Source of the DNA: Eledone cirrhosa
Taxonomy: Eukaryota
Direction: 5' to 3'
DNA length: 64,000 nucleotides
Assembly (NCBI GenBank): GCA_964016885.1
Contig: OZ024744.1
Coordinates: 49,352,001-49,416,000 of the forward strand
Positions 5,629-62,859 of this stretch are shown here, in pieces. How positions within the stretch are numbered: the first letter of the stretch is position 1; each line of letters opens with the position of its first letter. A program made the position numbers and the translations under genes. The notes under the pieces are model-generated. The model made no database searches. It was not told the origin of the DNA and saw nothing but the letters and a program-made list of their open reading frames with translations.

Positions 5629-5684
5629 CTGAAAAATAAAATGGAAGCAATTAAATGTACAGCTCACACATATGTAGGTGTAGC

Positions 5685-7100: not shown

Positions 7101-7174
7101 GTGGGAGGGGATGGGGGCATATTGTCTATATGCTTCAGCTTCGGCTTGTACCCATGGATGTTTATATATATATA

Positions 7175-7286
7175 TATAAAGAGTTGGGACCTGACAGCTG
7201 AGCTCTTGCCATTTCAACAGCTAGTTCCAGTCTGGAATTAGCTCTTGAAATGGCAAGAGTTCAACCATTGGGTCCTGACTCTTTAT
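7175..7286. mobile_element. Small palindromic MITE-like element
   Basis: tataaagagttgggacc...ctcttgccatttcaa / ttgaaatggcaagag...ggtcctgactctttata; imperfect full-length hairpin flanked by TA. Confidence 0.65.
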
Positions 7287-7373
7287 AATATAATCATACC
7301 CCAAGTATTGAGTACACTGTTGAGTAATGATCTAACCAGTTTCAAACTGAATCCATTCTGATTTATATATATA

Positions 7374-7925: not shown

Positions 7926-8111
7926 AATATATATATATTTATATTTATTATTCAATTGATGAAAGTTGGTTGATCATATAATCCGCTGACACGTTTGTAA
8001 ATAAACGTAAAGCACTCTACGATTTGTATTCGTTAGGATTTTCTCGGTAAAGTATCAAATATTATGAATAAGAGAGATGGTTTTATTTGTACATCTTTTT
8101 ATTACATAATT

Positions 8112-8172
8112 CTGTTATATATATTTCGAAGATGTCAGAGTTGTTACCTTCTGAAATGTTCTCATCAGACAG
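8112..8172 (-). ncRNA. Type I hammerhead ribozyme motif (PLE-type)
   Basis: Minus strand: ctgt CTGATGA gaacatttcaga-aggtaacaac-tctgacatcttc GAAA tatata TA acag. Stems I, II and palindromic stem III are identifiable. Confidence 0.75.
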
Positions 8173-8274
8173 TTTAAGATGTGTGGTTTTAGTTTTTTGA
8201 TATGCTACAGATTTATTGTAGTGTTTAAATCACTGTCCCATAGACATATCTATGGGACAGTGATGTAAACAATA

Positions 8275-8670
8275 TCTTCCGCACCTCCCACAGGCATCAT
8301 ACAGCTTACCTTTCGTTCATAAGAAGAAACCCTTTGTTGTCAACAGTGGAAGCAGCTCCCTAAACTTCTTCCATCCTGTCCTTATTCTAGATACTATGGC
8401 CTCGGAACACCCTCCTCCCTTGCTAATCTGATCACCTAGGTATCGGAAGCTTCTACTATCACTTCTACTATCAATTTTCTCTGAACAACTACTACATACA
8501 AAGTTTTTCTTTCCTGTTAGTTTACCTGCTATCCCACTACACCTCTTGTGTACCCAAAATTTGCATTGTGTACATTTTATAGAATTTATGCCAACTCCTT
8601 TTCTACATATCCAACATGGCCAGTTCCCTGATGGAATCAGGGTCTTGTCCTCTTTCCTACTTATCAATAT
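8275..8670 (-). mobile_element. RTE LINE fragment
   Basis: WPCWICRKGVGINSIKCTQCKFWVHKRCSGI...FRYLGD matches other RTE copies here. Confidence 0.85.
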
Positions 8671-8802
8671 TTTAGTACTACTTAATGCCAATCACATTTA
8701 CAGCACATTAAGCAAGTATCTTCTACTATGGCTTTAAGTTAACAAATACCTTGTAAGTAGAATTTGGTAGATGGAAACTGTACAGAAGTCAATCACATAT
8801 AT

Positions 8803-9059
8803 ATATCACATAAGAAACGGAGAATCAGTGGTGCGACGAATGAGATTTATTAGACATATTACAATCGTTTCTCTGGCGACCAGTTCCAGGCATGCCTGGA
8901 ACTGGTCGCCAGAGAAACGATTGTAATATGTCTAATAAATCTCATTCGTCGCACCACTGATTCTCCGTTTCTTATGTGATATTATACTCTGCTCTGTAAG
9001 AGCATCGAGTGCTCAAATGGCATACCACTTACGGATGCTTTAAGCATCCCACACTAATT
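8803..9059 (+). repeat. Perfect 180-bp palindrome (8803-8982) plus ~75-bp tail in a TA tract; PLE-type foldback
   Basis: Centre cagg CATG cctg at 8892/8893 with no spacer; the right arm carries an HHR 3' half, GAAAcgattgTA. Confidence 0.9.
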
Positions 9060-11055: not shown

Positions 11056-14000
11056 TGTTTCTTTTATTTGCCACTAGGGCATCAAAAGTGGGACAAGTAC
11101 AAAGGGGGGAGTTTACACAAAAAGGCGTCCTCAATAAGGAGGAGGCAATAACAAAATATAAAAATAAAATAAGATATAACAAAAAATAAAATTTATAACA
11201 AAATCCTCAATAGAGAGGAGGCGCCTTGGGGGGTCGCACACACCCCCGAAAAAAGTGTGCAACCCTTCTCCTCAGGAGCACAGAGAAGGGGTGCTCCCTT
11301 GGTCTTTCATCTTCCTCACCTATAGTCTGATGTAGAGTGAAGGCCCATTCACACGGGCCATTCTCGCCACTTTCACCCATCTTTCATAGAAACGGCTGGG
11401 GTGCAGCACCTCTCTCTCCATCCTGATCCTTCTTCCGAAATGATATCGGAAGAAACGGACCAGTTGTTGGCCAGAGAGAAAGGTGCCTGACCTCAGTCCT
11501 TTCAGACGCGTCCACCATACAACCTCTTTCGCCATGGCTATTACGCACAGAAACACCGCCTCTGCTTCATCTTTGAAGGGGGGAGGCGGCTTGATCATTA
11601 CAATAGACTCGGTGGTCAACCGGATCGGTCCCACCCTTGACAGCAGTTGTTCGACATAGCCCCACAGATTGGCTAGGCCCGAGCAGTGTACCAATGCGTG
11701 TGCAACGGTTTCCTCGTCGCACACGCATCTGGGACAGATCTTTTTGGCGGGGTCCCTACCCGGGCGCCCGTGTCTGTAGAGCCTTTCTCGAACGGGTAAA
11801 GCCCCTCGGTAGCACTGCCAGGCCAGGGACTTCTGGAAGTTGTCCATAGGTCCCGGGCTGAATGTCCTACCGAACAGGCTGGCCAGTTCGTCCTCCTCCA
11901 TGTCTAGGGCTTCTCCGAGGGCGTCGTCGCACCTGCTGCATACCAGCCCTCTATAGAATGTTGCGGTGGAGTCTCCACTGATAACCGGATCCGCCTGCCA
12001 GAGGGCGGTGAGCGCCTGGGCACACTCAGTGTGCCAGGCGCCCAGTTTTCTCGGTCTTTGCTTGACCCAGGATTGCAGCTCGGTGAGTGAGACGAGTCTG
12101 GGAAAGGTTCGTCTCACAAACGAGGCCCACACCGGTTGTCCGGTGAGGAATACGTAGAGGTGCCGTAGCCTTAATGCGTGTTTACGCATCATTAGCCACG
12201 GCATCCCCAGCCCTCCTTTCGAAGGGTGTTGACAGCAGATGGATCTCCTCACCATAGGAGCCCGCCTCTTCCAAAGGAATTGGAAGAGCGCGCGCTCCAT
12301 CTTGGTGAGGGTTTCCCTTGGGCAGGGCACTACGGTCAGGCGGTAGTAGATGACGGACGCTATGTAGGTGTTCGCCACCTCCGCCCGACCTTTCAGGGAT
12401 AGTTTGCAACTGGCCCACTTCTGGGTCAGTGCAAACACCCTGTTCGTAACCTCCGCCCAGTTTTTCTCCACCTGGAGGTCCAGTCCGAACCAGACCCCGA
12501 GCAACTTCACCGGGCCCTCCGTCCAGCGTCCGACGCCGCCATCGGAGGGCATCGGTCTGCCCCTCCACGTGCCGAGTTGCAAACCGATCGACTTGTCCCG
12601 GTTCAGCTTAGCCCCTGTGAACTTTTCGTACTCCTCCAGTAAGGTGCCGACCGCCTCGATTTCGGAGGCCGTCGACACCATTACTGTCACGTCATCGGCG
12701 TAGGCCGACACCGCTTTCCGCAGTCCCGGTTCCAAAGGGATGCCCTGCAACAACTCCAACTTCCGTAGTAGTGGCTCGAGAGTCAACACATACAGAAGGG
12801 AGGAGAGAGGGCACCCTTGTCGGATGGACCGCGCGATTTTGAACGGCTCCGAGAGGTAGCCGTTCACCTTGACCCTAGAGCAGATGCGGCTGCTGTGCAT
12901 AGCAGTGATCCAGCCCCTGAAAACGGGTCCGAAGCCTGCCGCCGCTAGCACCGCATCCAGGTAACCATGGTCGACCCTATCGAATGCCTTAGATTGATCC
13001 AAGTTGATCAGAGCCCCACCAAAGCCGGGTTTGTTCCCAACCCTCTCTATGATGTATCGCATGAGGTGGAGGTTGTCATGGATGGACCTGGACGGGATAG
13101 CGCATGTCTGCGCATCTCCCACCAGGTTGCCCACGACAAGCGCCAACCTCTTTGCTAGCACCTTGGCCAAAATCTGTAACTCTGTATTTAGCAGAGTTAT
13201 GGGCCTGAAGTTACTTATTTCGTCCCCCTTGTTCTCGTCCTTCCTCACTAGCGTGACTACGCCCTTGGTCACAGTACAGGGAATTCTCCCGTTCTGTTGC
13301 CAGTTGCAGTAGACCGCCTCGAGGAGATCGGGGAACAAGTCCGGCATAGCTAGATATAATTCGTAAGGAAGACCATCGAGACCCGGGGATTTGCGTTTGC
13401 CGCATTGGCTCAGCACGTCCTCTATCTCAGCGGCCGAAATCGGCTCCTCGCAGGACTTCGCCTCCCTGTCTGAGAGGCGCGGCAGGCCGTCGAGGTATGG
13501 ACCGAAGTCCACGTTCCCAACCGGCTCCCCGCCCCTCCCGAACAGTCGGGCAAAGTGCCTTTGAAAGGCCTCACACATCTGCTTAGGCTCAAGAATCGCC
13601 CGTCCATCCAGGTCTCGCAAAGACCGGATGGTGGATTTAGTTCCACTGTTGGCCTCTGTCACGCGGGCCCAGCCAACAGCTTTGGTCCCCTCGTTCCCTA
13701 GAGCACGTATTTTACTTCGGACAACGCAGCCTTCGTGCTTCGCGTCGAAAAACTGGCTCAAAGCCATTCTCGACGCTAGCACTCTGGCCACGTCGCCGCT
13801 TCTAATTGCCTCTTCTACTCTATCTATTAGCTCCCTTTCCTTCCTATTCCTATCCGCAGCTAGAACCTTACTAAATTCTATCGAGACTACTCTAATATCT
13901 CTCTTTAGAGATACCCACCACCTGCTGTTGACGATCGCTCCAGTCAACCGTTCCTTAACTAACGTACTAATCCGATTCCTGTAGGCTCTACTTGCCGGCA

Positions 14001-14696
14001 AGGACAAGTTGAGCTTCCAGTAACCGGGGCCCTGTCTATGAGTTCTGTCAAGGTTGACCATGCAGGTCACTAATTTGTGGTCTGAATAGCCAACCATGCG
14101 CATTTTTGGACAACTTAAAAAGTCCTTATCCTTAATTCTAACTAAGAACCTATCTAGGTACGACCCAGATGATCCGCTACGATTTGCCCAAGTCCAGGTT
14201 GGCGCAGTCGGAAAATCTAGTCGATATCTATCGGCCAGGTCAAATCGACCGATTAACCCTTTGAGGCTATTACACCCCTCTCTATCGGGGCAGGCCCCTA
14301 CGTAGTCCCAGCGTGCATCTAGGATACCATTCCAGTCCCCCACTAATAGCAAGGAGCGGGACGTCCCTAGAAAAGTCTCCAGACGATGGAAGAAGTCCGG
14401 CTACCAACCTAAACGCTCCGCCTTTACCACTGCCAAGGTCCAGAACCACTAGTCGACCCTCCGGGTCCAAATGTACCATCTGTGTTGCGAGACCCAGATG
14501 TTTTTGCAGCAGAACGACAACTCCACCCCCACCTCCGGGCTGACAGAGATGCGTGCATCTCAAAGTCATCAAAGGTGGGGGCCAGCTGTCGCACGTTGCT
14601 GATCCGGGCCTCGCAAATAACCATCACATCTATACGTTGTGACCTGAGGTCATTTAGAAGCATTGCTTGCTTCCAAGTTGAGCCCAGGCCACGCGC
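11056..14696 (-). mobile_element. 5'-truncated L1/Tx1-clade non-LTR retrotransposon with 12-bp TSD
   Basis: APE, RT and CCHC ORF2; TTGTACATGATA at 11044-11055 and 14697-14708. Confidence 0.92.
11320..14352 (-). CDS. Tx1/L1 ORF2 (endonuclease C-terminal part, RT, zinc knuckle); endonuclease N-terminus frameshifted upstream
   Basis: 1010-aa ORF: GDWN, SDH, PGLDGL, FRPITLLN, DQSKAFD, QGCPLS, YADD, CPRC..E.VAHALVHC. Confidence 0.9.
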   Translation of the reverse strand: MLLVGDWNGILDARWDYVGACPDREGCNSLKGLIGRFDLADRYRLDFPTAPTWTWANRSGSSGSYLDRFLVRIKDKDFLSCPKMRMVGYSDHKLVTCMVNLDRTHRQGPGYWKLNLSLPASRAYRNRISTLVKERLTGAIVNSRWWVSLKRDIRVVSIEFSKVLAADRNRKERELIDRVEEAIRSGDVARVLASRMALSQFFDAKHEGCVVRSKIRALGNEGTKAVGWARVTEANSGTKSTIRSLRDLDGRAILEPKQMCEAFQRHFARLFGRGGEPVGNVDFGPYLDGLPRLSDREAKSCEEPISAAEIEDVLSQCGKRKSPGLDGLPYELYLAMPDLFPDLLEAVYCNWQQNGRIPCTVTKGVVTLVRKDENKGDEISNFRPITLLNTELQILAKVLAKRLALVVGNLVGDAQTCAIPSRSIHDNLHLMRYIIERVGNKPGFGGALINLDQSKAFDRVDHGYLDAVLAAAGFGPVFRGWITAMHSSRICSRVKVNGYLSEPFKIARSIRQGCPLSSLLYVLTLEPLLRKLELLQGIPLEPGLRKAVSAYADDVTVMVSTASEIEAVGTLLEEYEKFTGAKLNRDKSIGLQLGTWRGRPMPSDGGVGRWTEGPVKLLGVWFGLDLQVEKNWAEVTNRVFALTQKWASCKLSLKGRAEVANTYIASVIYYRLTVVPCPRETLTKMERALFQFLWKRRAPMVRRSICCQHPSKGGLGMPWLMMRKHALRLRHLYVFLTGQPVWASFVRRTFPRLVSLTELQSWVKQRPRKLGAWHTECAQALTALWQADPVISGDSTATFYRGLVCSRCDDALGEALDMEEDELASLFGRTFSPGPMDNFQKSLAWQCYRGALPVRERLYRHGRPGRDPAKKICPRCVCDEETVAHALVHCSGLANLWGYVEQLLSRVGPIRLTTESIVMIKPPPPFKDEAEAVFLCVIAMAKEVVWWTRLKGLRSGTFLSGQQLVRFFRYHFGRRIRMEREVLHPSRFYERWVKVARMARVNGPSLYIRL

Positions 14697-15280: not shown

Positions 15281-15535
15281 TTCACAGCCGTGTGTGTGTG
15301 TATGTGTGTGTGTGTGCATGTGTATTATGTATGTGTGTTATGTGTATGTGTGTGTATAAAAGTTAGTGATTTTACAAAAACAGATTAATAAAATAAGTGT
15401 CAGACTTGAAAATAAATAAAAAAAAAAACAAACAAGTACAAGGAGTCAATATGATTGACTAAATCAAGACAGTGCCCCAGTATGGCAACGTTCTAATGAT
15501 TGAAAACATTAAAAGAATGTGTAAGCATATATATA

Positions 15536-16250
15536 TATAATCAAATATATAGATGGAAAAATTAGTTTTTGAATCATTTTTAATTCCTTACATATGTTTC
15601 AAGAGAATAATAGATTAAATTATTGGAAGAACGTTACATGTAATTTGTATAATCAATATCTATACATACAAAATGATATACAGATTTAATTTGTACATCT
15701 TCATCTTCAGAGGATTTTAAAAGAAAACATATTAAATTGAAGAAGACTATAACTGAAATTCAATTCCCACCTTAAACAGGATGGGGGACATCTCAAGTCT
15801 ACCCACTGACATAATGAATGACTAAAAAAAAAATAGTCATTTGCCATGAGTGGGTAGACTTGAGATGTCCCCCATCCTGTTTAAGGTGGGAATTGAATTT
15901 CAGTTATAGTCTTCTTCAATTTAATATGTTTTCTTTTAAAATCCTCTGAAGATGAAGATGTACAAATTAAATCTGTATATCATTTTGTATGTATAGATAT
16001 TGATTATACAAATTACATGTAACGTTCTTCCAATAATTTAATCTATAACTCTCTTGAAACATATGTAAGGAATTAAAAATGATTCAAAAACTACTTTTTC
16101 CATCTATATATTTGATTATATTTGCTCTGTGTTTATGTCTACCTTTGCAACTTTTTCTCCCTAAAATATTTCCTTTCTCTTCAGCCTAATAATATATAAA
16201 CACATTGAGCTAATTCTGAAACTACTTGGCAATTATGTACTATCATGTCA
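15536..16250 (+). repeat. 272-bp-arm inverted repeat (15536-15807 / 15849-16120) plus tail; HHR-bearing foldback
   Basis: Near-identical arms, 41-bp spacer; tcct CTGAAGA...GAAA catatg TA agga at 15942-16071. Confidence 0.9.
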
Positions 16251-21930: not shown

Positions 21931-21974
21931 ACTGCTTCACACACTCACACACGCACACACATATATATATATAT

Positions 21975-22408
21975 ATTGTTATACTTTGGGAGGGTCATGT
22001 AGCCAATAAGAAACACAAGCACCAGTTGCTTCCACTTCAATTTATTATAAATTTCCGGTTGGTTGGTTGGTTCCACAACCGGATGGTTGTTCATATATTG
22101 TCAAAGTTCTTTTGTCCCACAAAAACAAGATGGCATAGGACAGAACAAAGGAGAGGCACAAAACAAAGAAAAAATCCCCAGTTACTGAAGAGGTCACAGA
22201 ATGTGTGACAAAAGAACTTTGACAATATATGAACAACCATCCGGTTGTGGAACCAACCAACCAACTGGAAATTTATAATAAATTGAAGTGAAAGCAACTG
22301 GTGTGTGTGTTTCTTATTGGCAACATGACCCTCTCAAAGTACAACAATATCGGTTTCAACACACGTTTTCAGATAAAGAATCTTGCTTAACAAATTCAGA
22401 AACGAAAT
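21975..22408 (+). mobile_element. PLE-derived foldback: inverted arm, 3' end and tail of the 50200-51540 element family
   Basis: 21975-22112 is the reverse complement of ~22210-22350; 22120-22408 aligns with 51268-51538; the HHR GAAA is mutated to AAAA. Confidence 0.88.
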
Positions 22409-22561
22409 ATATATATATATACATACATACATACATACACACACACATACATATAGTTCGTAAAATCCCTTCATCAAGGCAGAGTCCAGCATGACCAAGT
22501 GCAACCATTGAAACCAGTCGCAACCAACAAAACACTATCCCTCTCTCTCTCATATATATAT

Positions 22562-26077: not shown

Positions 26078-26108
<31 letters not shown>

Positions 26109-26115
<7 letters not shown>

Positions 26116-26680
26116 GAATATAAAAGAGAGATAAACACAGATATATACATATATGTGCTCAAATCGTAAGGGACCAGATTTGCATGGGTGAAAAACTACT
26201 AACTATGAACAATAAGGTTTGCCAAACTCAATTTAAAATAATAAATCAAGAAAATAAATACAAACCGATATTGGGGCAACTGCCAGACACCCAGAAAGCT
26301 TTTGGTAATGCTGTTTCCCAATTATAGTGAAGGGTTAGGGTTAAGGTTTTTACACCCACTGATGAGAAAAAGAATTGGTAATTCCGTTCTCTATAATTGC
26401 GAAACAGCATTACCAAAAGCTGTCTGGGTGTCTGGAAGTTGCCCCAATATTCGTTTATATTTATTTTCTTGATTTATTCTTTTAAATTGAGTCTGGTAAA
26501 CCCTATTGTTCATAGTTAGTAGTTTTTTCACCCTAGCGAATCTGGACTTTTACGATTTGAGCACATATATGTATATATCTACGTTTATCTCTCTTTTATA
26601 TTCAATTATATTATACGGCCCGAAAAATCTCTTTCCTTGTAAGAGACTATTTTGAGTTTCTAACTCAATATATAACTTTG
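26109..26680 (+). repeat. About 220-bp-arm diverged inverted repeat plus tail in a TA tract, containing an HHR
   Basis: 26109-26331 versus 26387-26610; tail 26611-26680. Confidence 0.88.
26352..26431 (+). ncRNA. Type I hammerhead ribozyme motif with GUC cleavage triplet
   Basis: acaccca CTGATGA g...c GAAA cagc attaccaaaa gctg TC tgggtgt: 7-bp stem I, 5-bp stem III, G-C closing pair of stem II. Confidence 0.8.
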
Positions 26681-27805: not shown

Positions 27806-27877
<72 letters not shown>

Positions 27878-27881
<4 letters not shown>

Positions 27882-28188
27882 ATACTTTAGGAGGGTCATG
27901 TTGTCAATACAAACACACGTGCCTGTTGGTTTTCACTTTAATTTATTACAAATTTCTGGTTGGTTGGTTGGTTGGTTCGATAACTAGATGGTTGTTTATT
28001 TATTGTCAAAATTCTTTCGTCACACATTCTGTGACCTTGTCAGTAAATGATTTGTTATTTTGTGACTCTCCTTTGTTTCGTCCTACACCATCTTGTTTTT
28101 GTGTGCTGTGTACTTGGTTTGTGCATGTGTTATATCTGAGCGTGTGTGTGTTTTTATTTATTTATTCATGTTTATTTTCTTGTCATTA
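27878..28188 (-). mobile_element. Diverged PLE 3'-end copy (51170-51480 family)
   Basis: Reverse-complement alignment to 51180-51478. Confidence 0.8.
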
Positions 28189-36682: not shown

Positions 36683-36898
36683 ATATTTATTAAAATAACA
36701 GATTAAAGTTTAACCAAAGAATTGCTGCTTTCACCCTTAATGGAAGATCCCGTTAAGGGTGAAAGCAGCGATTCTGTGCTTAAACTTTAATCTGTTATTT
36801 CAATAAATATTTGCTCTATGGTTCTTATATAGTTGATATATATTTATCCTTATCGAGCCCTCTTTGGATTTTAGTCTTCACATTTATTATTATTACTA
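36683..36898 (+). mobile_element. Minimal foldback derived from the Naiad 3' terminus
   Basis: 36744-36898 aligns with 61196-61349; 36683-36743 is its inverted arm; flanked by TA tracts. Confidence 0.9.
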
Positions 36899-36912
36899 TA
36901 TATATATATATA

Positions 36913-37248
36913 TCATCATCATCATTTTACGTCCACTTTTCCCTGCTTGCAAGGGTGGGACGGGAACTGATACTGGCTTGATTTCTATAGCTTCCTAACA
37001 CCAACCTCATTTACAGTGAGTGCTGGGTGCTTTTTTGCCGTGGCACCTCCATGACCACTTTGCAGTGGAATGATAGGGACCACAGTCCCTATCATCTCAT
37101 TTCTACAGCTGAGTAAACTGGAGCAATGTGAAATAAAGTCTCTTGCGCAAGGAAACAACACATCAACAGGTCCGAGAATTGAACTCACAACCCTCACAAC
37201 CTTTCGATTCCAAGGCCAATGTTCTAACCACTAAGCTATATGCCTCCA
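36913..37248 (-). mobile_element. tRNA-SINE (19568 family)
   Basis: Reverse-complement match to 19568-19912. Confidence 0.85.
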
Positions 37249-41400: not shown

Positions 41401-41575
41401 CGGATAAGCCGGATATGCCTCCGTAAACACCCGGATATGCCTCCGTAAACAATAACTCTCTGCTCGAGTGGGCCAAGGTACCCAAACACTGATTTGTAAG
41501 ACTTCACCAGGTGGTGCTATTAAGTTAGACATGGCCTGGGCCAATACTGGCCGAAACCTATCAAAGTATCAAAGT
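38462..41575 (+). mobile_element. CR1-clade LINE ORF2 region, disrupted
   Basis: APE (LTETHL, YRPP, GDFN, LDL, SDH); RT (YRPITLTS, QHGF, DFSKAFD, PQGTVLGP, FADD, RPHLEYC); (TATCAAAG)2 tail. Confidence 0.92.
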
Positions 41576-41577
41576 AT

Positions 41578-41649
<72 letters not shown>

Positions 41650-41711
41650 GAAAATAGTTAGACATGGCCTGGGCCAATACTGGCCGAAACCTATCAAAGT
41701 ATCAAAGTATA

Positions 41712-43423
41712 TCATCATCATCATCATCAACGTTTAACGTCCGTGTTCCACGCTTGCATGGGCTTGGACGAGGGTAGTCCCACTTGAGGCAAGAGTGATT
41801 TTCTTGCTCGCATTGGACTGTCTGGCAGGTTTTCTACAGTTGGATGCCCTTCCTAACACCAACCACATTTACAGTGTGGGTCTGGGAGGTTTTTACCGTG
41901 TTGCCTACACGGCCACATTACAGCGTGGACTGTGTGTTTTTTTGTCGTGACACCTACACGATCTCATTTGTTTCGGCCTGGATGGCGCGGCACCAACATA
42001 ACTTTACATAGAACGGGGTGGTGTGGATGGGGTGGGGGTTGTGGTGGTGGGACGTGGTGTATTTTGTTAGAGATGCCTACTGGCAAGGCGGGTCTTCTCT
42101 ATTACTGAGTACCGCCAAAGGTCTCGGTCCAGTGACATTGTCTTGGTGAGGTGTAAGTGTGTGAGGTCGGTGTTTATCAGCTCGTCCCAGGTTTTTCTGC
42201 GTCTGCCTATTCCGTGGCTACCGTCTATCTTTATTGCCCTGCACTTTGTTATACAGCTATCATCCTTCATGCGCATCATGTGACCATACCAACGTAGCCT
42301 TCTCTCTAGTAAACAACATCTGATCCCTCTTATTTCTAATTTTTTCCTTAGTTCGTTTATGCTTTGTCGTTCACGTATATTACTATTACACATCCAGCGG
42401 AGCATGCAAGCTTCGTTTCTCTCTAGTCTGCGTATATCCTCTGCACACAATGCCCAGGTCTCACTGCCATGCAACATTGCTGTTCGTATGCAGGCATCGT
42501 ACAGCCTGCCTTTCATTTTTAGGGAGAACCCTTTAGCGGCTAATAGTGGTATAAGCTCTCTGAACTTTTTCCACCCAGTTCTGACTCTAGCTACTGTACT
42601 TTCAGAGCACCCTCCCCCACTGCTGATTTTGTCACCCAGGTAACGGAAGCTGTCCACTATTTCTATAGAACCCTCTGCGCAGTTGAAAGAGCTAGTATTT
42701 TGTGGGCACTTGCTGCTACTTATATCCCCAGAACACCGGCCACATGTAAAATCTATGTTCTTAGTTAGCTTACCTGTGATCCCACTACATCTTTTATGCA
42801 CCCAAACTTTGCATTTGGGACACAAAATGGAATTTCTACCTACGCCTTTCCTACACTCTGCGCATGGCCACTTCCCGGAGGGGACCGCCGCCTTATTTTC
42901 TTTCTTACAAACTAGAACTTTAGTCTTAGCTAGGTTAATTTTAAGGCCTTTTGATTCTAGGCCGTGCTTCCATGTTTGGAATTTCTTCTCTAGCTCGGCC
43001 ATTGATTCAGCTATGAGCGTTAGATCATCTGCGTATAGGAGTTCCCATGGGCAGCCGGTCTTGAACTCCACTGTTATAGCCTGGAGGGCAATAATAAATA
43101 GTAGGGGGCTAAGAACAGAGCCCTGATGAACACCAACTTTTACACTAAACTCTTCACTATATTCGTTGTTAATTCTAACCTTGCTAACTGTTTCTTTATA
43201 CATGGCTTGTATAGCTCTCACAAGCCATTCATCAACACCTAGTTTTCTGAGAGCCCACCAGATAATGGAACGGGGGACTCTGTCGAAGGCCTTCTCCAAG
43301 TCAACGAAAGCTAAGTATAGGGGTTTACTTTTAGCTAGGTACTTCTCCTGTAGTTGTCGTACAATGAAAAGAGCGTCTGTGGTACTTTTTCCTGACACAA
43401 ACCCGAACTGCATTTCATCTAGA
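41712..43423 (-). mobile_element. 5'-truncated RTE LINE with open 448-aa RT frame
   Basis: ORF 42067-43413: DLEKAFD, HQGSVLSP, YADD; (GAT)n tail. Confidence 0.93.
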
Positions 43424-43424
43424 T

Positions 43425-43494
<70 letters not shown>

Positions 43495-43569
43495 ATATAT
43501 ATATATATATATAATATATATATATATATATAGAAATAGAAAATAGAATAGCTTTCACCGTATTTTTGA

Positions 43570-46434
43570 CTAACTTCAGAAAACGTGACAATCACCTGAT
43601 CACCTATAGATCCGGGGAACACACAAGCCAGGTAGATTATATCCTTACCAGAAGACGTGACAGAGTGTCTGTTGTAAACACTAAATCCCTCCCCCATGAA
43701 GAATGCACCTCCCAACATAGACTGATAATTAACGACCTCATAGTCAGGACGAGACGTACTCGACAGCAGAAGAGGACTATCCTCAGGAGAAAAATATGGA
43801 AGCTAAAGGACCCCACAGCCAGAAATAAATTTCAATGCATATTACTTGATGCTTTCGACAGTAAGGAAGAGCATTTAGAGTCGGACAATATAGAGGGACA
43901 GTGGGAATTTCTGAAAGCAAACCTGCTGATGGCGACAGACGAAGTCTGTGGCTGGAGCAGGCCTGTAGGCAGGAGGAGAGTAACATGGTGGTGGAACAGT
44001 AAGGTGGAGGGGTCAATTAAGGCCAAAAAGCAGGCTTGGAAAGTATGGCGGGATGGGGGAAGTAGAGAAGACTATCAAGTGGCCAGGAGGGTAGCTAGCA
44101 TACAAGTGTACTTCGCAAGAAGGGAAGCAGAGGAAAGAAAGTTCAAGCATGTTCTACAACGCGAGGACCAAAAACGGGAGGTGTTCAGGATTGCGAGGCA
44201 ATGCGTCAAGGAAAACCGTGATATTGTCGAGGAGAAGTGTGTACTTAATGATGACGGCGTACTTGCCATCACCGACGCTGATAAGAAGGTAGCTTGGAAG
44301 TGTCACTATGAAAGGCTACTAAATGAGGAGAATAAATGGGAGAAAGACAGTCTCCCCCACATCGACCCAATAGAGGGACCAGCAGTGTTAGTCAAGGGGA
44401 GTATAATAAGTAAGGCAATCAAGGATATGAAGACGGGTAAGGCGGCTGGGCCTTCGGAAATAGTTGCTGAGATGCTGAAGGCATCTGGCACGGTGGGACA
44501 CACCATGGTCACCCGCATAGTTAACCAAGTCGTACAGAATGGGGTTGTTCCGAAGGACTGGCATAGCAGCATCATCGTTAACTGTTATAAAGGTAAAGGA
44601 GATGCCCTAGATAGGAGTAACTATAGAGGCATTAAATTAATCGACCAGGTCATGAAGGTCACGGAAAAAGTAATAGCGCAACTAATCAGAGAGAGAATTG
44701 ACCTAGATGAAATGCAGTTCGGGTTTGTGTCAGGCAAAAGTACCACAGACGCTCTTTTCATTGTATGACAACTACAGGAGAAGTACCTAGCTAAAGGTAA
44801 ACCCTTCTACTTAGCTTTTGTCGACTTGGAGAAAGCCTTCGACAGAGTCCCCCGTTCTATTATCTGGTGGGCTCTTAGAAAACTAGGGGTTGACGAATGG
44901 CTTGTGAGAGCTATACAAGCCATGTATAAAGAAACAGTCAGCAAGGTTAGAATTAACAACGAATATAGTGAAGAGTTTAGCGTAAAAGTTGGCATCCATC
45001 AGGGCTCGGTTCTCAGCCCCTACTATTTATTATTGCCCTTCAGGCTATAACAGAGGAGTTCAAGACCGGCTGCCCATGGGAACTCCTATACGCAGACGAC
45101 CTGACACTCATAGCTGAATCAATGGCCGAGCTAGAGAAGAAATTCCAAACATGGAAGCACGGCCTAGAATCAAAAGGACTTAAAATTAACCTGGCTAAGA
45201 CTAAAGTTCTAGTTTGTAGGAAAGAAAATAAGGCAGCGGTCCCTTCTGGGAAATGGCCATGCTCAGTGTGTAGGAAAGGCATAGGTAGAAACTCCATTTT
45301 ATGTCCCAAATGCAAAGTATGGGTGCATAAAAGATGTAGTGGGATCACAGGTAAGCTAACTAAGAACATAGATTTTACATGTGGCCGGTGCTCTGGTGCA
45401 ATAAGTAGCAGCAAGTGCCCACAAATACTAGCTCTTTCAATTGCGCAGAGGGTTCTATAGAAATAGTGGACAGATTCCGTTACCTGGGCGATAAAATCAG
45501 CAGTGGGGGAGGGTGCTCTGAAAGTACAGTAGCTAGAGTCAGAACTGGTTGGAAAAAGTTCAGAGAGCTTATACCACTATTAGCTGCTAAAGGGTTCTCC
45601 CTAAAAATGAAAGCAGGTTGTATGATGCCTGCATACGAACAGAAATGTTGCATGGCAGTGAGACCTGGGCATTGTGTGCAGAGGATATACGCAGACTAGA
45701 GAGGAACGAAGCTTGCATGCTCCGCTGGATGTGTAACAGTAATATACGTGAACGGCAAAGCATAAACGAACTAAGGAAAAAATTAGAAATAAGAGGGATC
45801 AGATGTTGTTTACTCGAGAGAAGGCTACGTTGGTATGGACATGTGATGCGCATGAAAGTCGATAGCTGTATAACAAAGTGCAGGGTAATAAAGATAGACG
45901 GTAGCCACGGAATAGGCAGACCTAGAAAAACCTGGGACGAGCTGATAAACTCCGACCTCACACACTTACACCTCTCCAAGACAATGTCACTGGACCGAGA
46001 CCTTTGGCGGTACTCAGTAATAGAGAAGACCCGCCTTACCTAAATACATAGTAAAACCTACTACAGCCAGTAGGCATCTCTAACAAAATACACCCTGTCC
46101 CACCACCCCCACCCCATCCACACCACCCCGTTCTATGTAAAGTTATGTTGGTGCCGCGCCATCCAGGCCGAAACAAATGAGATCGTGTAGGTGTCACGAC
46201 AAAAAAACACACACTCCACGCTGTAATGTGGCCGTGTAGGTAACACGGTAAAAACCTCCCAGACCCACACTGTAAATGTGGTTGGTGTTAGGAAGGGCAT
46301 CCAACTGTAGAAAACCTGCCAGACAGTCCTATGCGAGCAAGACAATCACTCTTGCCTCAAGTGGGACTACCCCCGTCCAAACCCATGCAAGCGTGGAACA
46401 CGGACGTTAAACGTTGATGATGATGATGATGATG

Positions 46435-46435
<1 letters not shown>
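43570..46435 (+). mobile_element. 5'-truncated RTE LINE with stops and frameshifts
   Basis: ORF pieces from 43566 to 46043; (GAT)n tail. Confidence 0.93.
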
Positions 46436-46468
<33 letters not shown>

Positions 46469-46549
46469 AATATATATATAATATATATATATATATTTAT
46501 AATATATATATATATATAATATATATATATATATATAATATTTATATAT

Positions 46550-46593
<44 letters not shown>

Positions 46594-46595
<2 letters not shown>

Positions 46596-46975
46596 AAGTA
46601 AGTATGTTTTGAAACAGTGAGCAGGTTTGAAATTAGAAAATAGAATAGCTTTCACCGTATTTTTTACTAAAGGAATTTTAGCCTGATAATGGGGTTTAGA
46701 ACCCTCAGATAAATGGAAAAAGATGAGTATTGACGTACATGGGAGTCGAACCCACATCTGTGGTTATCGCGACCACTGTGCTACCATTACACCAACACAA
46801 CACATCATCACATGGGTGATGTGTTGGTGTAATGGTAGCACCGTGGTTGCGATAACCACAGATGTGGGTTCGACTCCCATGTACGTCAATACTCATCTTT
46901 TTCCATTTATCTGAGGGTTCTAAACCCCATTATCAGGCTAAAATTCCTTTAGTCAAAAATACGGTGAAAGCTATT
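46594..46975 (-). repeat. About 160-bp-arm foldback (46644-46975) plus 50-bp tail in TA tracts
   Basis: aatagctttcaccg...cggtgaaagctatt arms. Confidence 0.9.
46818..46888 (+). tRNA. tRNA-like cloverleaf (pseudo-tRNA or SINE-head-like); mirror copy at 46731-46806 on minus
   Basis: gatgtgt/gtacgtc acceptor (with G-U pairs), gtgt/gcac D stem, gtggt/accac anticodon stem, gtggg TTCGACT cccat T arm; T5 run just downstream. The anticodon loop lacks U33. Confidence 0.6.
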
Positions 46976-47017
46976 ATATATATATATATATATGTATGTA
47001 TGTAAATATATATATAT

Positions 47018-50199: not shown

Positions 50200-51540
50200 T
50201 TTTTAACAAAAAACAAATCCTCCATTCCCATTATGCCAAACCCATGACTTCCAAATACCTGATCCACCAAAACTCAGCTGTTTCAGATCACACCAAAATC
50301 AACATACTGATTGCGGATTTAGTAAGGTTGATGAGGAACGTGTCCCACATGTGCAACCCCAAAGAAGTAGAGAGACACATATAACACTTCATCCACCGTA
50401 TGCAGTTCTCTGGTTACAATCAGAGAGATAAAATCAGAGTGTATAGAGGAGCCAGAACCAAATGGGAAAAAAATGATAAATAATGATACAAATGGGACCT
50501 GCCCCTTGTATAGGAGCAAATTTTGGAATAGAATAGAAAGAACTACGAATAAGGTTAATAAAATAAACTCATGGTATGATAGCAATAAATACCAGAGTGT
50601 AATGTTCATCAATACAACCCCTAGAGATGAACTAGCTTACAAATTTAGACGGGCCCTAGATAAACTTAAACTAAATATTGAGATAGTGGAAAGACCAGGT
50701 AGCTCCATAAAAACACTTATTAGTAATACGTACCCTTTTCAAAGACCTCCTTGTATAGATAAGAAATGCATAATCTGTAAACTAAGGCCCCATATTAACT
50801 GTAAAACTAGAAACATAGTATATAGCATAAGATGTACTGAGGGACAATGTAAAGATAAGAATATAATGTACATAGGTGAGACAGCTCGTAGCATAGGAGA
50901 ACAATTAAATGAACACTGGCGAGAACTCCAAGATAGAAAAGACTCATCAGTAGTCCACCGAAATGCTAAAATAGAACATAAGGGAAAATTAGAGAACATA
51001 GAAATAAAAATAAAATCTACACACAGAAAAGATGCAATGTTTAGACAAATCACAGAGGCAATAAACATAAATGAACTCCAACCAAAATTAAATAGAAAAT
51101 ATGAATGGAATAGCAACATCACAACTTACAATTAAGGACAAAATGAAAACACACACACATAGAACAAACAACTAACTAGTAACATGTAAATAAACAAATA
51201 AATAAACAAATAAAAACACACACAGAGACCCGGATGTAACACATGCGCAAACTAAGCACACAACAGACACAAAAACAAGATGGCGTAGGACAGAACAAAG
51301 GAGAGGCACAAAAAACAAAGAAAAGAATCCCCAGTCACTGAAGAGGTCACATAATGTGTGACGAAAGAACTTTGACAATATATGAACAACCAACCGGAAA
51401 TTTATAATAAATTGAAGTGAAAGCAACTGGTGCGTGTGTTTCTTATTGGCAACATGACCCTCCCAAAGTATAACAATATCGGTTTCAACACACGTTTTCA
51501 GATAAGGAATCTTGGTAAACAAAATCAGAAACGAAATATG
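50200..51540 (+). mobile_element. Penelope-like element 3' portion (RT thumb, Cys linker, GIY-YIG, HHR, tail)
   Basis: CIDKKCIIC...NCKTRNIVYSIRC...YIGETARS...EH...RQITEAINI...PKLNRK; disrupted upstream. Confidence 0.88.
51334..51376 (+). ncRNA. Minimal hammerhead motif in PLE 3'UTR
   Basis: gtca CTGAAGA g gtcaca taatg tgtgac GAAA gaac TT tgac. Confidence 0.72.
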
Positions 51541-51781
51541 TATACATATATATACATAGATATATACACACACACACACATATAGATATATATATACACA
51601 CACATATAGATATATATATACACACACACACATATAGATATATATATACACACACACACATATAGATATATATATATACACACACACACACATAGATATA
51701 TATATATACACACACACACACATAGATATATATACACACACACACACATATATATACACACACACACACATATATATATAT

Positions 51782-52468: not shown

Positions 52469-55110
52469 ATAATAATAAATTTGAAGACTAAAATCCAAAG
52501 AGGGCTCGATAAGGATAAATATATATCAAATATATAAGAACCGTAGAGCAAATATTTATTAAAATAACAGATTAAAGTTTAAGCAAAGAATCGCTGCTTT
52601 CACCCTTAACGGGATCTTCTGAAACTAACAAAGTCAATCTGTAAACGCAGAACTGGATATTTCTAAAAACGTTGCAACCGGAGGAAGACAGGAAGACGAT
52701 ACTTTGGTTCGTGGGAACGTTCGCTGGCAAAGAACGGGAAAAAACGAATAATACGTCATTAATAGGAGCGGTGAAAAACAATTACGCACAAAGACAGAAC
52801 CACGTTTATGGTATAAAAGAGGTCGTAGACTAATGTTCTCTTAGGTGGTGCTTAGAGACGTTCTCTGGCAATGAACGAAAAAAACGAAGATAATACGTCA
52901 TATGTGGATCGTAGAGAACAATAGCACGCAAAGACAAAACCACGTAAATGGTATAGCAGAAGTCGTAGACCAAATGAATCTCCGCTACAGAGTTAAGAAC
53001 AAAGTAAATAAATACAATACAGAAGTAATAGAAATAAATAAATACATACACGCAAACAAATACGTACATACATAAGCATACGCAAAACCTTACCATAGGT
53101 ATACAAAACGACGCACATATAAATATGTGTGTGTGTGTATGTGTGTATACAAATAAATAAATAATTATATAAACGTATATAAATAAATACTTACATAACA
53201 AGCGCACACACACACCCACATATAAATACACGAATGTTCGGAGACGTAAGTCAACTAAAACAAGAAGTACACAAATACACACACCCACCATACGTACGAA
53301 CCTGCATACTCACACAGACGCAAAACTCCCGTATACACATAGCCAAACCCTATGTACCAGAATATAAAATTATACGCCATAACAATCAAATATACGTACG
53401 AAAAGGTATACGTACCTTCACAAAACATACGGGTAATATATACTTACCTATGCAAATAAGTAAAGGAATAAACAAAACATATACTTAGCTCCCACATCAA
53501 GACGTAAAATATCCACGTATAGATCGTACTATCCGTTAGGGTATAACGTGGGGCTGTAATACAGGAAAGTTTTGTGCAATTTATGTTTGCAAGCCGAAAT
53601 TGCCTCAGATTTTTTGTTTAAGATGTGGTCTGTGGCGAAAAGAATGGGTATGCATGTAAAGACGCTGCTTGAAACTATTGGCGGTTAACCCTATGTAGGC
53701 CCTACGGGACGTGGGTGTTACAACCTTACATTTGTAGACAATGTTATTAGAGAGGCAATTCCCGGATAGGGGGCAATTACAATTAGTACTAACTACATGG
53801 TTGCACGTGTTCCTACGGCTAGGTAGTTTAGCTAAATTTGAAGCTGTGATGTTATGTGCAAGGTTAGGAGTCGTAGAGTAAGACATTTTAATAGTATTTC
53901 TATTAAAAATTTTACTATATTTATGAGTAGAGGGGAAATGCTTCGTAATAAGGGAAAGAAAGATCTTAGCTAATGGTGTGGCCACCTCCATATTATATGG
54001 TGGGTTATACCAACAAATGCGACCGGATCTATTTCTTCTAGGTCTATTTTCGTACTCTGTATATGCTACCTTATCGACAAATCCACTTTGAGCAAGAGCT
54101 TCATTGTAATAAGTGGAATGGTCGTTGAAAATACGCTCGTTGGTGGAAAGACGGGAAAGCCTCAACGAAACGTTTCTTACCAGGTTCTTGGTTATGCTGG
54201 CAGGATGGTTGGAATGCTTACTTATGTAATTAAGCGTATCATTCGGCTTTCTATACGGGTAATACAACCCATTCAATAAATTGAGGGCAACGTCGAGGTA
54301 ATTAACGACTGAGAGATTGGCCTCAACCTGTATAGAGAGGTTGAAGCCTTTAAAGAAGGCTGTGAGTTCTTTTCTGAACCTGTCGCAAGCACGAGGTCCG
54401 CACTTAGTCATGGTCAAAAGACCATCGTCACGGTACAAACCACCGCCCGCGTTGGGGAATTCGTCCTTGATAGAGAAAAGAAGGAAAAGGCCAATAAGAT
54501 CAGTAACCTCCGCAGAGTCACTGGCGCCCAAACTCACGTCGAATGAGGTACTATTGGATTTTTTAATCCAAATAGAGTCGTCGAAATTAATCACCGACTT
54601 ACGGGCATTGAGGATGACATCAACTTCGAAATCCTTAACCACTGTGAGTGTTTTAGCGAAATTGATAGCTCTAAGGAGAAGTGGTAAAGTGATGGAGGAG
54701 TAGTAATTGTTGATGTCGAATTGGATAAAACGGCAATGTTCCTTGTTACCTATGCCGTTGAACCAATCAATCACCGCGAAAGAATTGTTCCACAGTGCGA
54801 GAGGGGCCAAACTACTAATTTCAGGTATAATTCTATCAAGAATCGTTTTACTAAGTCTACCTAAATCGGACTTCGTAGGGTTAATAAGCCGAATAGAGGG
54901 GTTGTTCGGAAAATTGGATTTGTGATCCTTCAGGGTAAAGTGAGGGAGAAATAGGGTCCAGAGGTTCGGTCCAGTCCAGGATGTTGAGATCAGATGTGAT
55001 TTTAAACCCAGCATCGTTGATTTCATTGATGACGCACCGATTAGTTTTACGGTAATCCTTAGTTACAGCATTATGTAGTAGTTTTGCTTAAACTTTAATC
55101 TGTTATTTTA

Positions 55111-56204: not shown

Positions 56205-56594
56205 CTAGTACAGCGTTCCTTTGTCAGTGTTGAACAAACGAGCAACGATGGTTGCTAGACACTATGGCTTAATACGGGATGTTTGTTTACAAACACACCG
56301 AGCATTATAATAAATGTTCGGTGAATCCATACGTACATATATATATATGTGTGCATGTATGTATATATATATACATACTACTACGTCTGTATACATATAT
56401 GTATGTACGTGTACATACTTATATTTAAGTAACAGCGGTACTAAAAATGGGAAATGAAATTTCGTTTCATTTTTTCCCTTTTTCGTTTTCGGTGCACCCG
56501 GCCGATTAACCCACTCGATATGCAAATTGGGCTACTCAGCCGTTAATATGCATAAGGTAAGTATATACGTTCAACAAACTGGCAGGAAGGTATA

Positions 56595-56635
56595 CGTTGC
56601 TGACGATAGCTAATAAGCTTGAAACTAGTACAGCG
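56595..56635 (+). ncRNA. Minimal type I hammerhead ribozyme
   Basis: cgttg CTGACGA t agct aata agct t GAAA ctag TA cagcg. Confidence 0.82.
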
Positions 56636-57020
56636 TTCCTTTGTCAGTGTTGAACAAACGAGCAACGATGGTTGCTAGACACTATGGCTTAATACGGGAT
56701 GTTTGTTTACAAACACACCGAGCATTACAATAAATGTTCGGTGAATCCATACGTACATATATATATATGTGTGCCTGTATGTATATATATATATATATAT
56801 TAATACTACTGTACGTCTGTATGCATATATGTACGTGTACATACTTATATTTAAGTAACAGCCGTAGTAAGAGTGGGAAATGAAATTTCGTTTCATTTTT
56901 TCCGTTTATCGTTTTCGGTGCACCCGGCCGATTAACCCACTCGATATGCAAATTGGGCTACTCAGCCGTTAATATGCATAAGGTAAGTATATACGTTCAA
57001 CAATCTGGCAGGAAGGTATA

Positions 57021-57061
57021 CGTTGCTGACGATAGCTAATAAGCTTGAAACTAGTACAGCG
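57021..57061 (+). ncRNA. Minimal type I hammerhead ribozyme (identical copy)
   Basis: Same sequence as 56595-56635. Confidence 0.82.
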
Positions 57062-57606
57062 TTCCTTTGTCAGTGTTGAACAAACGAGCAACGATGGTTG
57101 CTAGACACTATGGCTTAATACGGGATGTTTGTTTACAAACACACCGAGCATTACAATAAATGTTCGGTGAATCCATACGTACATATATATATGTGTGCAT
57201 GTATGTCTGTATATATATACATACTACTGTACGTCTGTATGCATGTATGTATGTACGTGTACATACTTATATTTAAGTAACAGCCGTACTAAGAGTGGGA
57301 AATGAAATTTCGTTTCAATTTTTCCGTTTATATATCCTAAACGGACGGTAGTCCGTTTAGTAATATTGTTGTGGTCGTGTTTTCGTTGGCAATCGTCTGT
57401 TTACGACAGTACAGTGCGGCTCTCCTTTATTTAACTGAGATAAAACTTATATGAGCATGAACATTAGATCATTACGCATCTTTTGGCTTAAAAATCTAGA
57501 AATTTGGTCCAGCGGGAAAAAGTTTATAATCAAAGTTTGCTGATAAATCTTGTGTTCAAGTGAGTGAGTAGTAAGCGTGACGCTAGGGGAGGTAATCCAG
57601 AAATGA

Positions 57607-59229: not shown

Positions 59230-61349
59230 TTCTCTTAGGTGGTTCATAGAGACGTTCTCTGGCAATGAACGAAAAAAAACGAAGAAAATACGTCATATGT
59301 GGAGCGTGGAGAACAATTACACTCAAAGACAAAACCACGTAAATGGTATAGCAGAAGTCGTAGACTAAAATTCTAACTAGGAGACCGAATGAATCTCCGC
59401 TCCAGAGTTAAGAACAAAGTAAATAAATACAATACAGAAGTAATAGAAATTAAATAAATACATACACGCATACAAATACGTACATACACAAGCATACGCG
59501 AAAACACTACCATAGGTATACAAAACCACGCATATATAAATATGTGTGTGTGTGTGTATGCGTGTATACAAATAAATAAATAATTAAATAAACGTATATA
59601 AACAAATAAATACGTATATAACAAGCGCACACACATACCTACATGTAAATACACAAATATTCGTAGACGTACACATATACACACACCCTACATACGTACG
59701 AACCTGCATACTTACACAGACGCAAACGCCCATATACACATAACCAAACCATATGTACCAGAATATATTAAATTATACGCCATAACATATACAATCAAAT
59801 ATACGTACGAGAAGGTATACGTACCTTCACAGAACATACAGGTAATATATACTTACCTAAGCAAATAAGTAATGGTATAAAGAAAACATATACTTAGCTA
59901 CCATATCAAGACGTAAAATATCCACGTATAGATCGTTCTATCCGTTCGGGTATAACGTGGGGCTGTAATACAGGAAAGTTTTGTGCAATTTATGTTTACA
60001 AGCCGAAATTGCCTCAGATTTTTTGTTTAAGATGTGGTCTGTGGCGTAGAGTATTTTCAGGGCCTCAGCGGCGCAGAGGTCACATGGTCTTTTATTTCCG
60101 TTATACGATCTAGCCCTAGCTAGGATCTCCCAGTGTAACTTATATTGGGTGTGGTTGTCTTTTAGACTCCAGATATAAGCTGAAAGTGACGTCATATTCC
60201 TTCTTAGAGGGTAACGAAATGAATGGGCATGCATGTAAAGACGCTGCTTGAATCTATTGGCGGTTAACCCTATGTAGGCCCTACGGGACGTGGGTGTTTC
60301 AACCTTACATTTGTAGACAATGTTACTAGAGAGGCATTTCCCGGATAGGGGGCAATCAACCCGATTCCTACAATTACAGTTAGTACTAACTACAGGGTTG
60401 CACGTGTTCCTACGGCTAGGTAGTTTAGCTAAATTGGAAGCTATGATGTTATGTGCAAGGTTAGGAGTCGTAGAGTAAGAAATTTTAATAGTATTTCTAT
60501 TAAAAATTTTACTATATTTATGTGTAGGGGGAAAATGCTTCGTAATAAGGGAAAGAAAGATCTTAGCTAATGGTGTGGCCACCTCCATATTAAATGGTGG
60601 GTTATACCAACAAATGCGACGGGATCTATTTCTTCTAGGTCTATTTTCGTACTCTGTATATGCTACTTTATCGACAAATCCACTCCGAGCAAGAGCTTCA
60701 TTGTAATAAGTGGAATGGTCGTTGAAAATATGCTCGTTAGTAGATAGACGGGAAAGCCTCAACGAAACGTTTCTTACCAGGTTCTTGGTTATGCTGGCAG
60801 GAGGGTTGGAATGCTTACTTATGTAATTAAGCGAATCATTCGGCTTTCTATACGGGTAATAAATTGAGGGTAACGTCGAGGTAATTAACGACCGAGAGAT
60901 TGGCCTCAACCTGTATAGAGAGGTTGAAGCCTTTAAAGAAGGCTGTGAGTTCTTTTCTCAACCTGTTGCAAGCACGAGGTCCGCACATAGTCATGGTCAA
61001 AAGACCATCATCACGGTACAAACCATCGCCCGAGTTGGGGAATTCGTCCTTGATAGAGAAAAGAAGGAAAAAACCGATAAGATCAGTAAACTCCGCAGAA
61101 TCGCTGGCGCCCATACTCACGTCGAATGGGGTACTATTGGAACGTTTTTTGAAATATCCACTTCTGCGTTTACAGATTGACTTTGTTAGTTTCAGAAGAT
61201 CCCGTTAAGGGTGAAATCAGCGATTCTTTGCTTAAACTTTAATCTGTTATTTTAATAAATATTTGCTCTACGGTTCTTATATATTTGATATATATTTATC
61301 CTTATCGAACCCTCTTTGGTTTTTAGTCTTCAAATTTATTATTATTACT
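59230..61349. mobile_element. Naiad-type PLE copy 2: ORF part on minus, 3' terminus on plus
   Basis: ORFs 59938-60909 and 60848-61120 (YRDD, CNCRNRVDCPL, GIY-YIG, CDLC...CKH); 61141-61349 is the reverse complement of 52466-52675. Confidence 0.9.
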
Positions 61350-61554: not shown

Positions 61555-62421
<867 letters not shown>

Positions 62422-62785
62422 TTTCGTTTCTGAATTTGTTTAGCAAGATTCTTTGTCTGAAAACGTGTGTTGAAACCGATGTTGTTATACTTTGGGAGGG
62501 TCATGTTGCCAATAAGAAACACATGCACCAGTTGCTTTCACTTCAATTTATTATAATAAATTTATAAATTTAGAAATTTAGACATTTCCGGTTGGTTGGA
62601 TGGTTCCACAACCAGATGGTTGTATATATATTGTCAAAGTTCTTTCGTCACACATTCTGTTAGCTCTTCAGTGACTGGGGCTTCTTTTCTTTGTTTTTGT
62701 GCCTCTCCTTTGTTCTGTCCTACGCCATCTTGTTTCTGTGTGTGTGTTTCTTATTGGCAACATGACCCTCCCAAAGTATAACAAT
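62422..62785 (-). mobile_element. PLE-derived foldback (51170-51540 family)
   Basis: Tail 62422-62480, long arm with HHR ~62633-62675, short inverted arm 62740-62785. Confidence 0.87.
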
Positions 62786-62788
62786 ATA

Positions 62789-62820
<32 letters not shown>

Positions 62821-62822
62821 CC

Positions 62823-62859
<37 letters not shown>

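Follow-up and report, generated by a model that had tools for sequence, protein, structure and literature searches.

A tRNA-bearing, non-coding 260-nt repeat with PLE-type insertion architecture and a likely A58 footprint in its 5' ends

According to Craig et al., PLE insertions in (TA)n targets form partial tandems, include a 5'-truncated copy in inverted orientation and have a tail of 30-40 bp on one side (PMC8557442), and Frangieh et al. reported a PLE protein that extends both DNA strands, with two internal RNA start sites defining the tail (PMC11167929). Naiads and most Chlamys are presented in the cited portions of these two papers as lacking canonical hammerheads. Animal non-LTR retrozymes (PMC7229834; 10.64898/2026.07.22.740005) are non-coding elements with monomers of 150-450 bp, found both in tandem and dispersed, for which PLE dependence was proposed; they carry a type I hammerhead and form circular monomer RNA (PMC7229834), and a circle model for retrozyme-type elements has been set out (PMC4209133). 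Additional points of comparison are the Schistosoma repeats Sm-alpha and Sj-alpha, which are high-copy and SINE-like with a tRNA-derived part (PMC2770079), and the retroviral plus-strand strong stop, where reverse transcription ends just 3' of A58 in a tRNA fold (PMC11251516). These statements, and the comparisons below, refer to the portions of the cited papers that were drawn on here.

The element analysed in this study shares its small non-coding monomer, tandem and dispersed, with the non-LTR retrozymes, and its partial tandems, inverted 5'-truncated arm, one-sided tail and (TA)n targets with EN+ PLEs and non-autonomous Chlamys such as MRC1 (PMC8557442, PMC11167929). Unlike the retrozymes of PMC7229834, it has no type I hammerhead and carries a tRNA-like cloverleaf on a predicted 19-bp stem, and for this element, which is known from DNA, circles are inferred. 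It also differs from EN+ PLEs and MRC1 in having no ORF and no autonomous partner found by sequence matching, in its tRNA module, and in its tail of 45-60 nt, longer than that published for PLEs. Sm-alpha carries a hammerhead (PMC2770079), whereas this element has none. In retroviruses, the tRNA is a separate primer (PMC11251516), whereas here the fold lies in the element's own template and the stop would truncate the inserts. In searches of the open literature, no account came up of a PLE passenger that bears a tRNA and lacks a hammerhead, or of insertion ends that carry an m1A58 footprint; the family may be listed in Repbase, Dfam, subscription journals or supplementary files. Judged by its insertion architecture, the element is probably a variant of the non-autonomous PLE derivatives, retrozyme-like but lacking the hammerhead that defines retrozymes.

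The window (the whole stretch of 64,000 nucleotides that was analysed) contains one foldback copy of this element, which is a single insertion of the non-coding 260-nt monomer with long and short ends of the types seen across the family. Monomer positions are numbered m1 to m260, with m2 as tRNA base 1 and m57 as A58. The features of the window copy and its surroundings are as follows.

46437..46593, no strand: left (TA)n target tract, behind the 3' tail of an RTE-type LINE copy
46595..46811, minus: long arm, monomer m260 and m1-m208, 99% identical to the family majority sequence, long-end class (m203-215)
46595..46639, minus: 45-nt "tail", in the long arm alone
46731..46801, minus: mirror tRNA-like cloverleaf, loop CGCGATA, Rfam RF00005 at 37.8 bits, also ARAGORN
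46794-46803, minus: 5-bp duplication in the acceptor 5' strand of the mirror cloverleaf
46804-46809, minus: 3-bp duplication beside the 5-bp one
46811..46814, no strand: head-to-head arm joint with a CATG palindrome, read from the sequence; locus L028 has a comparable joint
46812..46979, plus: short arm, m256-m163, 97.6% identical to the family majority sequence, short-end class (m125-175)
46818..46888, plus: tRNA-like cloverleaf, Rfam RF00005 at 40.7 bits (E 3.6e-5), also ARAGORN
46825-46835, plus: A box
46848-46854, plus: anticodon loop
46867-46877, plus: B box, with A58 at 46873
46891..46909, plus: trailer with T5 (46898-46902), pairing with leader m243-m1 of the tandem or circular unit
46911..46954, plus: two predicted hairpins (m95-120 and m120-138), both also predicted in the sister family
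46980..47017, no strand: right (TA)n target tract, ahead of a minus-strand SINE tail
43537..43573, minus: second family fragment of 37 nt (m133-169), with a short end, beside a (TA)n tract

The arms (46640-46803 and 46816-46979) are 97% complementary across 164 nt, and the left arm extends 45 nt further to 46595. The initial annotation had bounded the element at 46594 and 46975; the 3' end of the long arm is at 46595 and that of the short arm at 46975-46979, both adjoining (TA)n. The 71-nt cloverleaf with A and B boxes that it had noticed, and the mirror copy on the other arm, were recovered by both ARAGORN and Rfam RF00005. The TTTTT that it had placed about 8 nt past the cloverleaf is present, 9 nt after the discriminator, and its assignment as a terminator needs qualifying in that the T5 also forms one strand of the leader-trailer stem described below. 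The 5-bp duplication was likewise observed; it lies in the left acceptor stem and is no target-site duplication. Only 6 nt of leader (46812-46817) are present in this copy.

Other structures were noted in the same region. The 37-nt family fragment is joined head-to-head to an RTE-type LINE at 43573/43574, and 41575-46575 holds a large inverted duplication of an RTE-type LINE (41575-43428 versus 44697-46575, 92%). Foldbacks unrelated to the element are found at 3186-3647, 7169-7292, 8798-8986, 15535-16121, 26103-26615 and 36683-36913, most of them by (TA)n and some with one arm longer.

An initial DNA search returned 1,027 candidates, of which the best 40 that were scored were 96-100% identical. 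Exact matches in the genome to three lineage-specific patterns numbered 1,105 (a 26-mer of the monomer body), 255 and 296, the last for a sister family, and reversed controls gave 0. Upstream of the tRNA, many copies have a fixed 52-nt linker that connects them to the 3' end of another unit before it, which defines the repeat as a monomer of 260 nt. The tandem junction has 120 exact matches, with a largest cluster of at most 3 among the 100 listed, and dispersed tandems reach 614 nt. The sister family, with a monomer of about 287 nt and a median identity of 92.6%, is by its divergence the older of the two; both monomer lengths lie within the 150-450 bp retrozyme range. The longest ATG-initiated ORF in the circularised monomers has 56 codons, or 60 in the sister family, and neither offers coding capacity. 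Related sequences were also observed in contigs of organisms B-E, and the 260-nt junction was found in one contig of organism D. In two sister-family loci (L295 and L320), a short TA tract belonging to the unit itself immediately follows the long end, resembling a remnant of the target that became fixed in the linker.

Units belonging to one insertion tend to share their variants (75% versus 10% for common variants and 6% versus 0.5% for rare ones), an observation that fits a circle and a homogeneous linear multimer equally. Two satellite-like arrays were also identified. The array L091 (contig C1, 131.46 Mb; 1415-8330) has 25 units and is bordered by (TA)n at each side, terminating in an inverted short arm at one of them and in a long end at the other; L207 (contig C3, 271.5 Mb) has more than 11 units. 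The units of L091 are about 15% apart, a heterogeneity too great for this array to have given rise to the young copies. Shared variants recur in its non-adjacent units, which suggests block duplications.

The anticodon loop of the cloverleaf differs between lineages, being CGCGATA in young copies, CTGGATA with U33 in subfamily C (whose cloverleaf scores 44-51 bits) and CCGGCAA in the sister family. The anticodon is therefore CGA, GGA or GGC by lineage, and decoding is not conserved. Translating tRNAs have a conserved anticodon and U33, and tRNA-Ser has a long variable arm; the variable region here is 4 nt. These features agree with the earlier view that this is not a translating tRNA. Its reading of the loop at 46848-46854 as TGCGATA lacking U33 was confirmed, position 33 being G, with G33 and the CGA anticodon confined to the young subfamily. 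The D arm bears a possible likeness to that of tRNA-Gln or tRNA-Trp. Changes in the stems between the two families mostly preserve pairing, the exception being a mismatched G-A at the top of the anticodon stem in the majority of family-1 copies, and 91.8% of cloverleaf cells are paired as compared with 22-57% in slid controls. Covariation within the cloverleaf did not rise above shuffles, 141-458 of 500 of which reached the observed values.

A leader of 19 nt before the tRNA pairs at 19 of 19 positions with the trailer that holds the T5, and the resulting 19-bp stem is predicted to close the cloverleaf. Its folding energy is -24.2 kcal/mol on the plus strand and -15.0 on the minus strand. In the sister family, leader and trailer are each 2 nt longer and, by inspection, 20 of 21 positions pair. 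The greater strength of this stem on the tRNA strand, and its retention in the sister family, support the tRNA strand as the RNA strand.

To describe the family independently of the tRNA, sites were taken from the first 100 listed of the 1,105 matches to the body 26-mer, all of them on contig C1, omitting six duplicate loci, the L091 array, six junction-bearing sites and the last two sites. Amongst the resulting 63 insertions, 22 were single and 41 were head-to-head pairs with their 3' ends outward, making inversion the commonest form. The 3' ends fall into two fixed classes about 45 nt apart, and 39 of the 41 pairs combine one long end (m203-215) with one short end (m125-175; P 4e-10), as do 31 of 37 inverted insertions in the sister family. 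(AT)n directly follows 84 of 104 3' ends, indicating a bias of insertion toward (TA)n, and partial tandems and inverted 5'-truncated arms were seen across the family. The long and short ends, tandems, inversions and (TA)n targets match the hallmarks of PLEs as given in the cited parts of PMC8557442 and PMC11167929.

This family-wide architecture agrees with the suggestion of the initial annotation that a non-autonomous, tRNA-bearing element was moved by PLE machinery. The outcome that it had named as contrary, ordinary LINE-tailed copies with an inversion unique to this locus, is not what was observed, given the inverted pairs above and copies that are not LINE-tailed. "tRNA-headed" describes the element in part, as the tRNA is present; the unit is the tandem monomer, and most copies are without most of the tRNA, with a whole cloverleaf retained in 15 of the 63 insertions. 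A foldback centred on the tRNA is seen at the window locus, and pairs whose two arms each begin close to the 5' end of the tRNA number only 2 of 41; thus, the layout of the window copy is a minority form. Among the 30 best-scoring copies, a set ranked by similarity to the window copy, 13 had 5' ends within m256-m4, and once the window copy itself and query-favoured copies were removed, 6 of 23 had 5' ends near tRNA base 1 (P 0.014). Copies do not always begin at the tRNA 5' end, as had been considered; most 5' ends lie elsewhere and pile up 3' of A58.

In the unselected sample, the range m37-102 contained 79 5' ends, 60 of them in m57-69 (mode m62-63) and none in m37-56, in a bin that was set after the first histogram and with the two arms of one insertion not being independent. 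Single-arm copies alone gave 14 of 18 in m57-69, and the six omitted junction-bearing sites would add three 5' ends, at m66, m78 and m79. With the same bins, the older subfamily C (28 insertions, 30 loci) had 30 of 37 ends in m57-69 and 3 in m37-56, and the sister family (64 insertions, 70 loci) had 8 of 33 and 10, respectively. A58 is kept in 183 of 187 units of the family, and base 58 of the sister family is T in 67, C in 2 and A in 1 of 70 units. The pile-up contrast between the A58-bearing lineages and the U58 sister family gave Fisher P values of 5e-7 and 3e-6, read against a control that differs at two T-loop bases (58 and 59), is older and may have used another enzyme. Since m59-81, including the palindromes at the joints, is identical in the sister family, microhomology alone does not explain the peak. 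Additionally, in independent DNA contigs the depth declines roughly fourfold over the T arm, and four runs contain the common inversion joint.

In cellular tRNAs, reverse transcription is arrested one base before m1A58, and the arrest is removed by AlkB (PMC11251516). The accumulation of 5' ends just 3' of A58, without such a pile-up in the U58 sister family, makes it likely that host methylation of the RNA has left its trace in the DNA, and the RNA of the element was likely folded and m1A58-methylated as a tRNA when it was copied. The mode at m62-63 lies 4-5 nt short of the predicted stop, and trimming must therefore be assumed. Two further candidates were set aside during this analysis: an "altered T-arm subfamily" proved to be an alignment artefact of inversion joints, and A58-changed copies inside family 1 were scattered single changes unsuited as a control, for which the sister family serves. 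Another, smaller group of 5' ends, at m34-36 within the anticodon loop (L017/L048, L035, L071, L092, L108 and L125), may mark either a further modification stop or a site of cleavage.

The same PLE passenger could also have been broken in the T arm without methylation, by the folded T-loop or elbow or by nuclease cleavage of the T-loop, an explanation that we regard as unlikely. A58 forms the T54-A58 pair that shapes the T-loop, and the modal ends at m62-63 rather than m58, together with a sister family altered at both 58 and 59, sit comfortably with it. The boundary at m57-58, however, is sharp, since none of the 79 ends falls within the 20 nt beyond it, and an enzyme arriving there would by then have traversed the 19-bp stem and the 3' strands of both helices, so that structure alone should have stopped it earlier.

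We return to methylation as part of the mechanism that we consider probable, in which a PLE reverse transcriptase/endonuclease copies the non-coding 260-nt repeat from a tRNA-mimic RNA methylated at A58 by the host. The PLE enzyme would nick both strands of a TA tract, and cDNA would be primed at two RNA sites, giving the long and short ends. Synthesis would mostly stall at m1A58, the cDNA would lose a few bases by trimming, and the trimmed cDNA would join the other arm or the target through microhomology. Read-through cDNA would extend to tRNA base 1, the 5' end of the RNA, and stop there, as in the window copy, or continue into the preceding unit, and such continuation implies a template that is partly multimeric or circular. 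The 5' end at tRNA base 1 may come from Pol III initiation or from RNase P cleavage. The leader-trailer stem may hold the ends of a unit-length RNA together or shield them from end processing, as a putative counterpart to the job of the hammerhead in retrozymes. Two further observations speak against this mechanism. With a T5 directly behind the tRNA, Pol III would be expected to terminate ahead of the 3' ends that are copied, and the sister family has spread despite a broken B box, both boxes being present in family 1. These two features speak for more than a simple role as a Pol III promoter.

A bolder version, possible but doubtful in our estimation, makes the element a ribozyme-free retrozyme. 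The host tRNA pathway would cut tandem transcripts at base 1, the stem would act as a nicked helix, and 260-nt circles would be formed and copied by the PLE in a rolling-circle manner. The failure of the initial annotation to find a hammerhead was upheld within the searches made. No CUGANGA/UUGANAA...GAAA hammerhead core was found on either strand of either circularised monomer, and no Rfam ribozyme was found at E <=5 across three tandem loci, where the matches at that threshold were to tRNA, to microsatellite-driven miRNA/snoRNA and, in one weak case, to mascRNA. A split hammerhead (CTGAGGG ... GAAAGCTA), with short ends near its would-be cut, was considered and rejected as its lone GAAA is lost in the sister family.

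If the monomer were the pseudo-LTR of an autonomous PLE whose ORF-bearing copies went unsampled, the short copies would be its truncated ends. Retrozymes derive from PLE pLTRs according to the cited part of 10.64898/2026.07.22.740005, truncated PLE ends look similar, and the searches score best candidates only. Against this stands the sequence upstream of the tRNA, which is the monomer itself, and the lack of any shared non-monomer or coding continuation, other than in pairs that are duplicates or belong to one family, when the non-microsatellite flanks of 277 insertions (46 on the 5' side, 72 on the 3' side) were compared. No monomer match was found in 30 of 150 GIY-YIG loci, and within the window there was no similarity to an autonomous PLE 3' end. 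We thus judge this explanation improbable. The earlier proposal that the element is the terminus of an autonomous PLE gained no support from the 277 insertions or the 30 GIY-YIG loci, and the flanks of those insertions showed no shared extension into coding sequence.

A PLE group in the window (50371-51560, 21961-22455, 62280-62857 and 27806-28183) carries a C-terminal GIY-YIG-like ORF remnant, a hammerhead-like CTGAAGA...GAAA motif and long and short ends about 58 nt apart. Head-to-head junctions with the 3' ends of this group account for 4 of the 46 non-microsatellite 5' junctions (L035, L076, L082 and L310), amongst which L310 alone is a clean long and short pairing and L035 is short with short. 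The group is weakly suggested as a candidate helper, a lead close to chance. Also present in the window is a 426-nt tandem repeat (56205-57331, 2.7 copies) whose arms join the tRNA element in L200 and L284 and in which no Rfam ribozyme was found. Two PLE-like RT/GIY-YIG ORF remnants (53605-55062 and 59938-60957, minus strand) were recognized by motif and not by Pfam, which named 1 of the 4 PLE-like ORFs of the window. An open frame of 1,026 codons with RT and zf-RVT domains (11320-14400, minus strand) presumably belongs to an L1/Tx1-type LINE, given its domain layout.

An ordinary tRNA-derived SINE moved by an RTE LINE, with inversions arising from twin priming or local foldback, is highly implausible in spite of the A and B boxes and the RTE LINEs and RTE-tailed SINEs abundant nearby. 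The monomer has no sequence match to the RTE LINE 3' end or, as the initial annotation had held, to the SINEs of the window, and it has no simple-repeat or poly(A) tail; the two arms are copies of one segment that begin at distinct 3' positions, tandem junctions run through the fixed linker, and the long/short pairing of the 41 inverted insertions largely refutes this explanation. Equally implausible is a host array (satellite) of tRNA or tRNA-like genes with occasionally retroposed transcripts, for which the long arrays L091 and L207 and the U33 and high cloverleaf scores of subfamily C could be cited, since the anticodon changes by lineage, the array units have diverged and are thus decaying, and L091 itself terminates, within (TA)n, in the long and short ends typical of PLEs.

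As a probable PLE passenger that has a tRNA mimic and spreads in the absence of a hammerhead, the element bears on the role played by the RNA module at PLE ends. For two-site priming by PLEs on a non-autonomous RNA, the fixed long and short 3' ends of the family provide ready predictions. The contrast between A58 and U58 lineages is a natural experiment which suggests that RNA modification can be read from the breakpoints of DNA insertions, and that host tRNA methylation limits the full-length copying of a transposon. If the element were indeed a ribozyme-free retrozyme, its thousands of copies would amount to a base-resolution fossil record of tRNA modification on transposon RNA.
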